64,000 nucleotides of DNA from Eledone cirrhosa (Eukaryota): positions 32,488,001-32,552,000 of the forward strand of contig OZ024753.1 of NCBI GenBank assembly GCA_964016885.1. The letters are read 5' to 3'. Positions 2,695 through 56,992 of the stretch are shown piece by piece. Numbering within the stretch: the stretch's first letter is position 1; each line of letters begins with the position of its first letter. The notes beneath the pieces are model-generated. The model saw only the letters and a list, made by a program, of their open reading frames with translations, searched no databases and had not been told where the DNA came from. The position numbers and the translations under genes are program-made.

Positions 2695-2839
2695 GCAAAA
2701 GTTTTATTTAAAATTGTTGGGTTACAACGAGTAAATATTTTATAACTGATATAAAAGCACTCAATATGATATCCCAGAAATATATATAATGAAATAAATA
2801 TGGTTTTATAAATATAGTTTCCATTTGTTTAATATCGTA
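2695..2839. mobile_element. truncated, internally inverted copy of the 34273-34706 family
   Basis: 2695-2765 is the reverse complement of ~34637-34706. 2777-2839 matches 34556-34618 directly, starting at the HHR GAAA. Confidence 0.8.
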
Positions 2840-3365
2840 TTATAAATATATATATATTAGATATATATTAGATATATATATTATATATATATATATATTA
2901 TATATATATTATATATATATATTACATATATATATATTATATATATATATATATATATAATATATATATATAATATATATATAATATATATATTATATAT
3001 ATATATTACATATATATATATTATATATATATATATATTATATATATATATTATATATATTATATATATATTATATATATATATATATTATATATATATA
3101 TTATATATATTATATATATATATATTATATATATATATATATTATATATATTATATATATATATATTATATATATATATATATTATATATATATATATAT
3201 ATATATATATTATATATATATATATATATATATTATATATATATATATATTATACACATATATATAATATATATTATATATATATATATATTATACATAT
3301 ATATATAATATATATATATATTATATATATATATTATATATATATAATATATATATATATTATTT

Positions 3366-3421
3366 ACTGCTATATATATTTCGTTGATAGCCATTGAATG
3401 GCTATGACCTCATTAGGCAGT
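3366..3421 (-). ncRNA. degenerate type-I hammerhead ribozyme at the end of a ~590-bp island
   Basis: Minus strand: actgc-CTAATGA-ggtcatagcc attcaat ggctatcaac-GAAA-tatata-TA-gcagt. Core G5>A. Confidence 0.65.
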
Positions 3422-4364
3422 TAGTCATGTCTTAGATATGCCAGCTCTGTGTGTATAGTGTTGATGGTATCAGAGCCTCGGGACATATGAGCTTGTTAGG
3501 AATATTCTGATGTTGTTAGGCGGAATAGTCTTGATTCTCATTGGTCAGTTTGTAGTGGTAGTAGGTTGGTATTTGACCTCAAAGAGGCAGGTGGTTCTTT
3601 AAGGTTCAAACCATCAGGCAAGATGACAATAGTTCCACATGACTGACTTTCACAAAACGCATTCTTGGTCGGATATATTTTGAAATAAGGTTAATAGTAT
3701 GAAATAGATACTGCAGGTCATTCTTAAATTGAGGAATTTATGTGGAGTGGTGCTACTGAAAATTATGGTTAGAGTAGAAAGTTTACAAATAAAAGGGTTA
3801 TGTAGGTTGGCTTGCACTATACTCACACACACCTCCACAGACACACACACACTTCCACATATACAAAGAGTGGCGTGGTAATACTTAGTATAATGGTTAG
3901 AGTCCAATACTTCGATAGTTTAGAAAATTTAGAAATAAAGGGTTTATGCTGGTTCATTTGTACATACACTCACACCTACCCCCACAAAAACTCACGCATC
4001 TACACACACAAATCCATACAGGCGTGTATATATATACATATGCATGCATGTATGTACGCACAAGTATACACACATATATATATATATATAAAATATATAT
4101 ATACACAGAACATACATATATATAAAATATATACATACAAAAATATAAAAAAATATATATATACATAGAATACACACACACAAAATATATACAGACGTAA
4201 AACATACATATATATATATATATAAATACACACACACATACACACATATATATATATATATAAAATATATACATACAGATACGCACACACACATAAAAAA
4301 GATATACGCATACATACACATATAAAATACACATATATATACACATGATACATATATACATATA

Positions 4365-5232
4365 ATCAGGTTCAATAAAACATTGTTTAGCTGAATCCCA
4401 ACCAGTAGAGGATCCGGTGGACCATCCACCATAGGGACCTCAAACCATGGGTGGTTGTTGTTGTCCATTGGTCATTAGTACGGGGTGTAGGGGACCCACG
4501 GGGGTGGGGTGGGGGGGCTTTTGGAAGGCCGTAACCGAGGTTTATCCATATAGCTTGAGGAAAGTTCCCGTCCTTAGGTGTCTGCAGACACCGAATAAGT
4601 CGGCCCTTCTGTTTAATAGCTTGGTTCCGCCATGAAGAATCTCGAGTGTCTCACTAAGACAGAGGTTGCAAATACCAGACCCGTCTCTGTCTGGGGAACC
4701 TTTCTAACCACGGACCAGACCAGAGAGTGCGGGGTCTTTTCAAGTGCGGGGTCTTTTCAAGTTTGAGCTTCCAGATCAGTTCAGAAAGGGCCGTACATTT
4801 CCTCTTATCTATTCTGTTAAAGGAATGGCGATGGTTATACCACCGAGCTTTGAAGCTCGTCGCTGTGGATCCTATGTAGTTGTGCTCCGAGTTAGGGGTT
4901 GTGACCTTGCACCTGTAGACCACGTTTTTCGTCATACATTCATTACTAAGGGGGCATAGCGACGGGTCTCTGCAATTACAATAGTTCTTAAGCCCCACCA
5001 CATGTACCGCGTGGTTAGCATCACCCGGGGTTGGCTGGGTAGCCTCCGCAATCAGTACAGGGTCGTTGAGTTCCGGTGTGTTAGTTGGGCCTGCCCGGGA
5101 TCCGATGCGCCCCGCGTGCTGGTTCTGTTGGGTGGCTCCGGGGTTTACGGTGGTATTACAGGCAGTGAGCCTATTCCTATTTATGCCAGCTTTGTGCTGG
5201 GCTACGGAGCGTGTGGTTGAGTGGGGAAAGTT
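4365..5232 (-). mobile_element. 5'-truncated Penelope-like element: linker, GIY-YIG endonuclease and 3' UTR
   Basis: CNCRDPSLCPL..C..NVVY...YIG.T..FKARWYNH..SF, then after frameshifts ICNLCLSE...LLNRR...CRH, stop at 4542-4544. A 17-bp tandem duplication at ~4726-4760 breaks the frame. Confidence 0.9.
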
Positions 5233-53800: not shown

Positions 53801-55540
53801 AAATAATATTTCTATTACAAATGACTGAACACTCATTGAATATGAATTGTTTGATATATAACTGATCAGATTAGCGTCTATAACAAACAATTTATTGAAT
53901 GACATACACATTGACAACTTCTGCGGAGTTGCTATAACAAACAATATCTAACAAAACATATCAAAATGACGTATGTATTTTCGTTATTAACACAAAACAA
54001 ATTTGTCTCAAATCAAATCTCAAAACGCAGTAATCAAAAACCAAATAATCCTTTTTGATTCGAAGACAGAATCCTATAATAGGATTTCAAAGAACGTTGA
54101 GATTATAATCAGTAAATATTTGTATTTACATTTTTCCATAGATATTTCTTTGGTTTCCCAGTTTCGCATAAATCTTATCATTGATTTCTTTATTTTGAGG
54201 AAATGTGTTATTAAAGTGACATATGGATATGTGTTTTATTGGATTAATTCGAACTCGAACCAATGTTAACATAATCAACAAAAAATATGAAGAGAAAATA
54301 GACGTTTGAAAAAATAACCAGGGAATGTAATTGTCAGACCAGACTAATATTGGATAATAAATGATTATTCATGGATGTTTTAGAAAACAATTTTCAGAAG
54401 AGCATCAGCAATACACGAACGAAACAATAATAATAATAATAATAATAATAATATTCAAGCAAAAAAGGGAGTCGTAAATTATGTTTGATAACCAGATATA
54501 TTTATATAGTTTAGAACATATGAAGTAATAATTAAAATATGTGTATAGACAAGTGAGGAATATATATATACAGGCACACACACAAACGCATACGTACACA
54601 CACACACACACAATCGCATACGTACACACACACACACACATATATATATATATATATATATATAGAGAGAGAGAGAGAGAGAGAGACATGTATACATACA
54701 CGTGATGCTATAGATCAATCCTTAGTGCATTCACTCATACATTGGATAGACAAATATGACATATATATGTGTATGTATATATATATATATATATATATAT
54801 ATATATATATGTATGTGTATATATATATATATATATATGTATGTGTATATATATATATATATATGTATGTGTATATATATATATATATATGTATGTATAT
54901 ATATATATATATATATGTATGTATATATATATATATATACATGTAAGTATATATATATATATATATATACATGTAAGTATATATATATATATATATATAT
55001 ATGTAAGTATATATATATATATAAGTATATATATAAGTATATATATATATATATAAGTATATATATATATATATAAGTATATATATATATATATATATAT
55101 AAGTATATATATATATATATATATATAAGTATATATATATATATATATATATAAGTATATATATATATATATATATAAGTATATATATATATATATATAT
55201 ATATATATAAGTATATATATATATATATATATATATAAGTATATATATATATATATATATATATAAGTATATATATATATATATATATATATATATATAT
55301 ATATATATATATATATATATATATATATATATATATATATAAGTATATATATATATATATATATATATATATATATATATATATAGTATATATATATATA
55401 TATAAGTATATATATATATATATATATATATAAGTATATATATATATATATAAGTATATATATATATATATATATATATATATATATATATATATATATA
55501 TATAAGTATATATATATATATATATATATATATATTAGTA

Positions 55541-55611
55541 CTGCAGGATGTCCAAAGTCACCCAGTTTAGTTGCCAACGACCCGACCATGAGACAGGTTG
55601 TACTGGGATAC
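55541..55611 (-). repeat. inverted copy of the 5' ~70 bp of the 56448 element
   Basis: Reverse complement of 56448-56518 with 1 substitution. Confidence 0.92.
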
Positions 55612-56447
55612 ATATATATACATATATATATATATATATATATATATATATACATATATATATATATACATATATATACATACATATACATACATATAAA
55701 TATATATACATATATATACATATATATACATACATATAAATATATATGCATATATATACATATATATACATATATATACATATATATATATATATATAAT
55801 TATATATATATATATATATATATATATATAAATATATATATGTATATATATATATATATATATGTATATATATATATATGTATGTATGCATATATATATA
55901 TATCTATGTATATGTATATATATGTATATATATGTATATATATTCATACATATGTATATGTATAAATATGTATATATATATATATACATATGTATATGTA
56001 TGTATATATATATATATATGTATATATATTCATACATATGTATATGTATAAATATGTATATATATATATATACACATGTATATGTATGTATATATATATA
56101 TATATATATATATATACATATGTATATGTATATATATATATATATATATATACATATGTATATGTATGTATATATATATATATATATATATATGTATATA
56201 TATATATATATATGTGTATATATATATATGTATGTATATATATATATATATATATATATATATATATATATATATATATATATGTATGTATATATATATA
56301 TATATATATATATATATATATATATATATATATGTATATATATATATATGTATGTATATATATATATATATATATATATATATATATATATATATATATA
56401 TATATATATATATATATATATATATATGTATATATATATATGTATAA

Positions 56448-56992
56448 GTATCCCAGTACAACCTGTCTCATGGTCGGGTCGTTGGCGACTAAACTGGGTG
56501 ACTTTGGACATCCTGCAGGACTAAAAACAAAACCTGTCAAAGGGCAAAGGAGCTCTTAAGAATCAATGACCATCCAAAATCAGCGGGAGAGATGACACCT
56601 TAGCCTTTGTTAAGGCAGAATTCTAGGAGAAGGAAAACTCTGATATAACACCTGCAACCCTGATTGTATCCAATGATGTTGACTTGTTCTTCTTTTTGTA
56701 AATATCATCTTGGTTAACAGAGTGGGACTGGCTTTGTGCAGTGCCTTTGCTCACTATAAAAGCTTCACGGCACAGGCATTGGTTTATATCTGCAGATCTC
56801 TCTGCACTTGTCGTCACATGGTACCATGGGCCCAGCACTATGTGTCAATAATTGTCACAGTGTAGTGTTTGTACCAGAGATTTCAAGTCGCTGGCTGGAC
56901 TAAAAAGTCACACTCGTTCAGCGCATCGGTAGGAGTTCTCCTACATGGATATAAAGTAGTGGCCGTACTGGAAAACGAGTTGGCAGCCACCA
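56448..56992 (+). mobile_element. short RTE-derived element (putative 5' UTR fused to a C2H2-coding 3' end)
   Basis: 56861-56932 reads CSVCTRDFKSLAGLKSHTRSAHR*, resembling KSLAGLKRH in the 61-kb RTE. The 3' end gtggccgtactggaaaacgagttggcagccac is similar to that element's end. Confidence 0.6.

Follow-up and report, generated by a model that had tools for sequence, protein, structure and literature searches.

A stretch of 64,000 nucleotides of Eledone cirrhosa DNA (the window) carries insertions in TA arrays that are palindromic, flanked by inverted repeats or joined to an inverted piece of their own family, and it raises the question of whether a single system produced them all, as a sequence-only reading of this DNA had proposed. 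Self-BLAST of the masked window, together with alignment of the arms, revealed an inversion at every one of the named sites (12/12). These named inversions lump together three processes, i.e. ends of Penelope-like elements (PLEs), 5′ inversion of a LINE, and local duplications centred on TA. An explanation in which PLE ends, 5′ flips of an RTE-like LINE and local duplications would be separate sources of inversion on a common TA landing ground is, taken whole, quite probable in our judgement. TA sequence was masked in 22% of the window vs 12.5% in the first 60 sampled genome stretches, and the search of the window for inverted pairs was swamped by TA pairs. Candidates at 19133-19521 (85%), 59951/60241 (84%) and 50685-50834 (terminal inverted repeats) were left out as older or MITE-like.

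Seven of the named sites proved to be PLE ends, with head-to-head arms stopping at two fixed points 30-90 nt apart. These sites and the 11018/11298 pair belong to the inverted pLTR architecture of PLEs, which the earlier reading had given as known and which is indeed published. The corresponding features were the following:

2694..2837, unstranded: stub of PLE-like family C, with the long (tail) end inverted at 2694-2772 and joined to a sense piece that stops at the short end (self-BLAST)
5394..5684, unstranded: copy of PLE family B that opens with about 25 nt of the tail end in inverted orientation and continues as sense body up to the short end
11018..11185, + strand: tailed (long) end of PLE-like family E, opposite the 11298 part on the other side of a TA run
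11298..11375, − strand: PLE-like family E short end, tail-to-tail with 11018
26765..27058, unstranded: PLE-like family A; an arm running from the short end is inverted, a 6-nt centre follows, and the sense arm has a putative hammerhead core (26910-26947) and a 60-nt tail
30326..30838, unstranded: PLE family B; an arm running from the short end is inverted and separated by a spacer from the sense pLTR, which has a hammerhead-like core and a 57-nt tail
34273..34705, unstranded: PLE-like family C; an arm running from the short end is inverted, the centre is 2 nt (34408-34409), and the sense arm has a hammerhead-like core and a tail
38327..38591, unstranded: family D, a non-coding tandem repeat whose ends are of PLE type; a tailed arm is followed by a palindromic centre and by an arm reaching the short end
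46866..47254, unstranded: family A; an inverted arm running from the short end, together with element interior, precedes a sense remnant that stops at the long end

A body joined to an inverted piece was confirmed at 2695, 5393 and 46866, and self-BLAST paired the 2694 stub with the 34273 region (2700-2764 with 34700-34637, minus; 2777-2837 with 34556-34615, plus). Arm alignment of the palindromes gave 113-nt arms with 4 mismatches and a 6-nt centre at 26765, 199 aligned positions with 10 mismatches and 16 gap positions at 30328, and 117 nt with 5 mismatches at 38356; at the 34273 site, the 34331 arms spanned 77 nt with 2 mismatches, and the outer arm (34282-34332/34554-34604) matched at 100%. 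The 11018/11298 pair, identical at 77 of 78 nt, was considered as a local duplication and rejected because at least 12 other hits match equally well; it corresponds to two PLE ends placed tail-to-tail.

Dozens of other loci show these PLE layouts, again at fixed positions; the arms have two fixed outer ends, usually one on each arm, with TA outside both. In family A, 10 of 29 tail-sampled copies were inverted, and the inverted arm ended at position 112-113 in 9/10 of them; the values for family B were 16/29 copies, ending at 202-203 in 15 of the 16. Long and short ends were paired in 23/26 paired copies of family D (28 examined). Micro-inversions below 20 nt (L273, L279 and several family A stubs) were left out of the counts. 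Arm divergence was 1.8% within loci vs 5.2% between loci (28 loci), and the closest arm was the locus's own arm in only 13/28 family A loci. At locus L101, arms of two different PLE families are joined.

An inverted or tandem pLTR with a tail at one end was found in families A-E. In other copies of family B (L258), an ORF with a GIY-YIG domain lies directly upstream of the pLTR (PF01541, E=2e-4, 21.8 bits, just below the 22.6 cut-off), and a further ORF piece without Pfam match lies upstream. Families A, C, D and E, examined as ends and short interiors, may be non-autonomous passengers. A putative hammerhead core with a 12-bp stem II was recognised in family A, a weaker core in C and a variant core in B, and the core pattern was not found in families D or E. 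Among the 150 Rfam matches listed of 262 (E<=1) there was no hammerhead; all 150 were microRNA families below gathering scores and were discarded as hairpin noise. Hammerhead folds were no better than those of shuffled sequences. In family A the predicted hammerhead cut site, as read from the motif, is not where the arms end; they end about 40 and 100 nt downstream of it. These PLE ends would be formed if both strands of the TA target were nicked, each 3′ end primed cDNA at one of two start sites, and the inner ends of the cDNAs were then joined. For a PLE in vitro, the available part of PMC11167929 describes nicking of both strands, a pair of start sites and a predicted dimer.

At 13619, 34739 and 55541 the inversion is of a different kind, a stretch of local DNA being duplicated in inverted orientation around a TA run. 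Two of these duplications are single-copy and one shares a private deletion:

13619..13742, unstranded: about 33 nt of single-copy flank duplicated in inverted orientation around a TA centre, with the copy inside the TA array
31095..31170, unstranded: minimal TA-centred inverted duplication with a 13-nt non-TA arm, absent from the earlier reading (arm alignment)
34742..35332, unstranded: TA-arm-TA-arm′-TA, a 266-nt single-copy segment and its inverted duplicate, with all three junctions in TA runs
55535..55614, − strand: the initial ~65 nt of the adjacent repeat copy, duplicated in inverted orientation with its private deletion junction
56445..56990, + strand: 5′-truncated copy of an interspersed, non-coding repeat of ~560 nt, from which the 55541 arm derives

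Alignment of the arms showed identity at 43/46 nt for 13619, 272/280 for 34739 (6 gap positions) and 77/80 for 55541/56448. The 34742 and 13717 arms are single-copy, and the private deletion junction is present in both 55541 arms and in 0/29 other copies of the repeat.

In 1.17 Mb sampled across the genome, TA-centred inverted duplications were found at 13/800 TA, 3/400 short-TA and 0/1004 non-TA blocks, and a shuffled-flank control expected 1.6 vs the 13 observed (P about 1e-8). The difference held for blocks of at least 25 nt (13/744 TA vs 0/629 non-TA, p=0.0004). Thus flanks are mirrored across TA tracts and not across other simple repeats, single-copy DNA included, which bears out the proposal that self-complementary TA tracts nucleate inverted duplications. 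Ten of the 16 sampled cases match other loci, and some of these are chance pairs of repeat ends; six sampled cases, as well as 13619, involve low-copy DNA. A control with flanks in direct orientation (6/800 TA vs 161/779 other blocks) was dominated by satellites and uninformative. The window itself is not enriched (3/71 tracts vs 13/800 in the genome, p=0.14). With the chance rate removed, about 10 cases per Mb would extrapolate to roughly 30,000 in the genome. Our literature search found nothing on TA-centred germ-line duplications.

In these duplications the insert is the reverse complement of adjacent DNA, and they likely reflect DNA synthesis folding back inside the TA run: a strand, nascent or broken, whose end consists of (TA)n would pair with itself, copy back over its flank, and return to the template at TA microhomology. 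They might instead be scars of retro-insertion repair, in which a TA target nicked for a completed or abortive insertion folds back, and not replication slips. At 55541 and L344 the duplicated stretch coincides exactly with an inserted element's 5′ junction, 34739 lies directly against a PLE tail, and double-strand breaks in yeast yield fold-back inverted duplications according to the available text of PMC11724301. However, the low-copy cases, 13619 and the six sampled ones, argue against this view, and TA tracts break by themselves via cruciforms, as stated in the part of PMC12972899 at hand. We hold an origin as repair scars to be possible and rather doubtful, and favour fold-back synthesis within the TA run.

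TA arrays are hard to sequence, and these structures could be artefacts of assembly, read foldback or false haplotype duplication. Junction support comes from contigs of one sample, possibly the assembly's own source, and is weak; no spanning raw read was seen. At 34739 the contig of one run follows the left arm and that of another the right arm at an A-run indel, and over most of the arm only right-arm alleles appear in a contig (RAD-seq run X4 gave no cover and run X3 almost none). Contig depth was 1.27x and 1.51x that of the flank, near the 1.35x expected for two copies and above the 0.68x for a false duplication, a weak test with two values from one sample. Against an artefact stand the fixed family-specific ends across dozens of loci and the divergence of the arms by 1-10%. 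We regard this explanation as highly improbable, in agreement with the earlier statement that the structures are not read foldbacks.

The third source is the LINE, of which the window contains two copies:

6232..9496, − strand: near full-length RTE-like LINE with AP endonuclease and RT in two overlapping frames and a (GATA)n/TA tail
9756..10821, + strand: 5′-truncated RTE-like LINE with TA flank, a 21-nt inverted piece (element 353-333), and body from 2232

Treating both copies as one inverted duplication was rejected: they are 97.2% alike, and at its 3′ end the 6232 copy has a 99% match to another locus, so that they are separate insertions. The family carries the Pfam domains RVT_1, Exo_endo_phos_2 and DUF6451, and shows the RTE-type architecture of a single ORF for AP endonuclease and RT, about 3.3 kb, and a microsatellite tail; the ORF is split over two frames in the 6232 copy, and the relatives, with sea urchin, brittle star and ctenophore among their hosts, encode APE-RT proteins of ~1000-1050 aa. 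No named RTE reference was present among its 109 homologues, and we take the family to be RTE from architecture and recall.

Among the 63 copies with a visible body 5′ end (68 examined), 24 carry an inversion of twin-priming type; the proportion was 11/39 in the sample anchored at the 3′ end, and 13/24 in a second sample that may be biased in favour of inverted copies. The TA flank meets the inverted piece at the element position adjoining the body start, often at an AT/TA word, and this second start lies within 50 nt of the body start in 18/21 inverted copies. TA microhomology of at least 2 nt was present in 13/21 inverted copies vs a background of 10% (P 1e-8); ordinary truncations also showed it (11/39 by our own count), and therefore it does not single out second priming. 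The inverted part extends toward the RNA 5′ end and the 3′ end is not duplicated, as in twin priming, which Ostertag and Kazazian reportedly proposed for L1 in 2001.

The inversions might have arisen after insertion, by rearrangement of DNA between TA tracts or by recombination. The TA-centred duplications show that inversion at the DNA level occurs in this genome, and a few inverted copies have large gaps (209 nt, 978 nt, and the window copy at 9756). Nevertheless, the close second starts speak against it, as do the inner junctions, which lack TA, the flanking DNA, which is not inverted along, and three copies (L300, L301 and L321) inverted right to the element 5′ end. A post-insertion origin is thus very improbable in our view. 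The 9756 copy, atypical in that 1.9 kb is missing between its two parts, is of the twin-priming type with a large deletion. In the twin-priming reading, a top-strand TA end would anneal inside the same RNA and be extended toward the RNA 5′ end, following the Ostertag-Kazazian model.

PLE and RTE-like elements are both involved, as the sequence-only reading had stated, and its two-ended priming fits them alike: reverse transcription was likely primed from both cut DNA ends. That a self-complementary target gives any retroelement two primable ends would be a single mechanism for all of the inversions. Nearly all inverted copies are TA-flanked, mirrored flanks occur at TA tracts only, and RTE-like copies that have a TA run on their 5′ side were inverted in 20/44 cases vs 2/17 of the others at a 10-nt cut (p=0.018). 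TA-flanked copies thus tend to be inverted more often, a contrast expected from the earlier reading that stood at this cut and did not at 8 nt (p=0.11) or 12 nt (p=0.06). On the contrary, a PHD-bearing control LINE had TA at 12/19 5′ junctions and no inversion (0/19; p=0.001 vs the RTE-like family); its copies were incidental and not best matches (26 found, 6 cut off, 1 used as reference, 19 counted). TA is therefore not sufficient for inversion, and the enzyme likely matters: because another TA-flanked LINE shows no inversion, twin priming in the RTE-like family would need a property of its enzyme. Likewise, the ~560-nt repeat at 56450 has no 5′ inverted duplicate in 29 other copies, PLE-type inversion duplicates sequence whereas the LINE type does not, and TA-centred duplications need no element, 13619 and 34739 being single-copy DNA. 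A single TA-driven mechanism is accordingly improbable, and the notion of one unifying system, whose PLE part was already published, was abandoned in favour of three sources.

The PLE layout is the published architecture, and the LINE inversions and TA-centred duplications are the less expected parts. We give about an even chance to the joint reading that a non-L1 LINE of an invertebrate undergoes twin priming in roughly one insertion out of three, with (TA)n as second primer and as an enzyme-specific trait, that (TA)n tracts are germ-line fold-back pivots, and that the priming of PLE ends can involve two different RNAs, as at L101. If true, a LINE of another architecture inverting 28-38% of its copies, beside a never-inverting LINE on the same target, would make the question of target, enzyme or host testable, and together with the TA pivots it would be a natural system for separating the three in two-ended priming. 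TA repeats are fragile sites in yeast models and cancer, and a count of inherited TA-centred fold-back scars would allow the resolution of such breaks or stalls to be read from the genome. In annotation, these hairpins should not be labelled MITEs or microRNA precursors. Our search of the literature found nothing on twin priming in RTE or mollusc LINEs, although Ichiyanagi and Okada (2008), Kojima and Okada (2009) and Ostertag and Kazazian (2001) may bear on it. In the available part of PMC4245944, twin-priming 5′ inversion is taken as a property that mammalian L1 shows in mammalian cells.

Compared with EN+ PLEs, as far as the accessible text of PMC8557442 and PMC11167929 describes them, the elements of the window share an inverted 5′-truncated copy adjoining the body, a tail at one end only, (TA)n targets, a putative hammerhead core, two start sites bounding the tail and, in family B, a C-terminal GIY-YIG domain. 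They differ in their tails (~30-90 nt vs 30-40 published), in that the pairing of long and short ends is counted here, and in L101.

With mammalian L1, whose 5′-inverted copies are explained by twin priming in the consulted sections of PMC2912911 and PMC4245944, the RTE-like LINE shares the order of flank, inverted internal piece and sense body, a second start adjoining the body start with small overlap or gap, and microhomology at the flank junction. The same sections of PMC4245944 report inversions only with human L1 in cells of human origin, apart from a single Nimb-2 insert. Here, by contrast, the carrier is a single-ORF RTE-like LINE of an invertebrate, landing in (TA)n and not at T-rich sites as L1 does; both of its flanks are TA runs, so that target duplications are not legible in this comparison.

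The TA-centred duplications resemble short-range template switching (Walker et al. 2021, PMC7954356) and fold-back inversion at breaks (Yu et al. 2024, PMC11724301) in the reverse copying of nearby DNA into an inverted repeat, in the AT-rich context and in the return by microhomology, to judge from the available portions of these papers. The ape study reports poly(dA:dT) enrichment, and the words dinucleotide and microsatellite are absent from its available portion (PMC7954356); the yeast events, in the corresponding portion of PMC11724301, are mostly 5-34 bp long and lie at induced breaks. Unlike in those systems, the pivot here is the (TA)n tract itself, and the arms reach 266 nt.

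Masked self-BLAST and arm alignments confirmed the inversions at all twelve sites (12/12) named by the sequence-only reading, and its claim that the arms have diverged was borne out, with differences of 1-10% plus indels. The inversions are genuine and are of three mechanism kinds, each of which is already known:

2695, 5393, 26765, 30328, 34273, 38356, 46866 and 11018/11298: Penelope-like (PLE-like) ends
9756: copy of an RTE-like LINE
13619, 34739 and 55541, and also 31095: TA-centred duplications

The check for artefacts drew on the contigs of one sample, the only one in which the region is represented. 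At 34739, the main contig carries the right-arm alleles, and at one indel sequencing run X1 matches the left arm and run X2 the right arm. Depth relative to the flank was 1.27x and 1.51x, with a two-copy expectation of 1.35x. Contig alleles and depth weakly support two true arms at 34739; the family-wide regularities described below are a stronger argument against an artefact than the contig evidence.

Simple repeats make up 22% of the window vs 12.5% of the first 60 stretches sampled from this 3.0-Gb genome, whose size, composition and repeat types suggest an octopus-like host. The window also holds two minisatellites (21422-21914, 26-nt x19; 18601-18741, 37-nt x3.8), and a 150-nt element at 50685-50834 with short terminal inverted repeats, lying in a TA site, which is a MITE-like DNA transposon and a fourth source of inverted repeats. 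An old MITE-like palindrome with 130-nt arms (85%) lies at 19133-19521, in AT-rich sequence outside TA arrays.

Regarding the TA-centred duplications, no further genome match was found for either the 34742 arm (266 nt) or the 13717 flank in a search that passes over very common words. The 55541 arm and the adjoining repeat copy have in common a deletion junction and a 5' truncation point that were found in 0/29 other repeat copies. The layout at 34739 is TA-A-TA-A'-TA, which would result if a strand folded back within one TA run, copied A backward as far as the preceding TA run and re-annealed through TA homology. In 117 evenly spaced 10-kb stretches of the genome (120 were requested, 3 being non-existent), mirrored flanks were observed at 13/800 TA blocks and 3/400 short-TA blocks, and at 0/1004 non-TA blocks, 225 of them CA/TG or GA/TC. 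When flank pairs were drawn from different loci, 1.6 cases were expected vs the 13 observed (P 1e-8), and for blocks of at least 25 nt the values were 13/744 for TA vs 0/629 for non-TA (p=0.0004). Up to 80 nt, longer tracts have a higher rate (1/288, 4/268 and 8/207, then 0/37), and the rate in the window is ordinary (3/71 tracts). Six of the 16 sampled cases had no match at other sampled loci, and some of the remaining ones are repeat ends paired by chance. Either replication or a retroelement nick could be the trigger; related mechanisms are described in portions of papers on short-range template switching (PMC7954356), fold-back inversions at breaks (PMC11724301) and TA cruciform cleavage (PMC12972899). 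Mirrored compound microsatellites (CA)n(TA)n(TG)n at 22532-22620 and 41981-42120 may be fold-back products, uncountable in the masked test. A small hairpin stub in TA (6003-6130, arms ~6077-6094 and 6113-6130) resembles stubs at two sampled loci, L075 and L078.

Every PLE-like island belongs to a large family (first-look candidates: 1352 for family A, 500 for D and 253 for B). Families A and B were sampled through the tail alone, so that palindromes were not selected for, and an inverted arm was found within 1.5 kb in 10/29 family A and 16/29 family B copies, both lower bounds. In 9/10 and 15/16 of these cases, respectively, this arm terminates at one fixed site that lies ~60 nt before the end of the body. 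In family D, 23 of the 26 paired copies (28 examined) had one long and one short end. The inner junction differs from copy to copy, indicating that each palindrome arose at its own insertion. Arm divergence was 1.8% within a locus vs 5.2% between loci, and the nearest arm was the own arm in just 13/28 loci. A putative hammerhead core is present in family A, and breakpoints were mapped against its predicted cut as the sequence-only reading had proposed; no coincidence was observed, the two ends being situated ~40 and ~100 nt downstream of the cut read from the motif (~26956), which argues against ribozyme cleavage as their origin. In family B, copies have the end of a GIY-YIG ORF upstream. The 11018/11298 pair consists of two family E ends, one long and one short, that face each other. 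The arm has no fewer than 12 other matches as good as its partner, and arm pairings in the sampled DNA were 5 tail-to-tail vs 23 head-to-head. This PLE architecture is already published: portions of Craig 2021 describe an inverted 5'-truncated copy, a one-sided tail and (TA)n targets, and portions of Frangieh 2024 describe both strands nicked and extended from two internal start sites bounding the tail. A further PLE fragment is located at 4380-5231 (minus strand), where a GIY-YIG-like ORF end of 195 aa, read by eye and with no Pfam match, ends in TA; a PLE-like fragment at 638-2047 has a putative hammerhead core at 1944-2000.

A mixed insert was found in TA at another locus (L101:1460-2300; G000:C5:68070540-68071380), in which a family B body (short end) is joined head-to-head to the long end of an inverted family D arm. 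In this one case a single two-ended event would involve two different RNAs, suggesting that the family B enzyme moves family D. A strict scan for mixed-family pairings revealed 0 mixed vs 100 same-family pairs.

The LINE of 9756 encodes an AP endonuclease and an RT, has a (GATA)n/TA tail and shows relatives of ~1000 aa in marine invertebrates; the RTE label is provisional, being taken from architecture rather than from a tree. In the 9756 copy the inverted piece measures 21 nt and the gap 1.9 kb; this copy and its neighbour at 6232 are separate insertions. Among 68 further copies from two search samples, some of them extended, the body 5' end was visible in 63, and 24 of these carried an inverted piece of at least 20 nt (11/39 in the 3'-anchored sample and 13/24 in the second, which can over-represent inverted copies). 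For the 21 inverted pieces scored with a visible outer end, the direction is towards the element's 5' end, and 18 of them start no more than 50 nt from where the body begins, with overlaps of up to 13 nt. TA alternation of at least 2 nt was present at the start of 13/21 pieces vs a 10% background (P 1e-8), and in 11/39 ordinary truncations (counted manually in the same output). Outer sites 2969 and 2735 recur in two copies each with differing inner ends, indicating independent events. Four sampled loci (L344-L347) and ten more LINE matches start at element position 2838-2839, pointing either to a 5' stop that recurs or to the edge of a subfamily.

The proposal that TA targets favour inversion held in part. 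Within the RTE-like family, 20/44 TA-flanked copies vs 2/17 others were inverted (p=0.018), a trend not significant at two other cut-offs. On the other hand, a control LINE with a PHD finger within the RT region (L156:6805-9999) showed 0 inverted copies among 19 with a visible 5' end (p=0.001 vs the RTE-like LINE; 26 found, 6 cut off and 1 used as reference) despite TA flanks at 12 of these ends. Altogether, TA likely contributes as a primer, with the family as the deciding factor.

A literature search, with key older papers outside its coverage, found no account of an invertebrate LINE other than L1 in which twin priming is frequent and family-specific, nor of a TA-specific rate of fold-back duplications, and the present inversions are unreported in portions of 10.64898/2026.07.22.740005, PMC5389967, PMC6007223, PMC4476161, PMC9115989 and PMC13282606. 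According to portions of PMC4245944, inversions of the LINE kind came only from human L1 in human cells, with one exception; those of the RTE-like LINE match the twin-priming signature set out in portions of PMC2912911.
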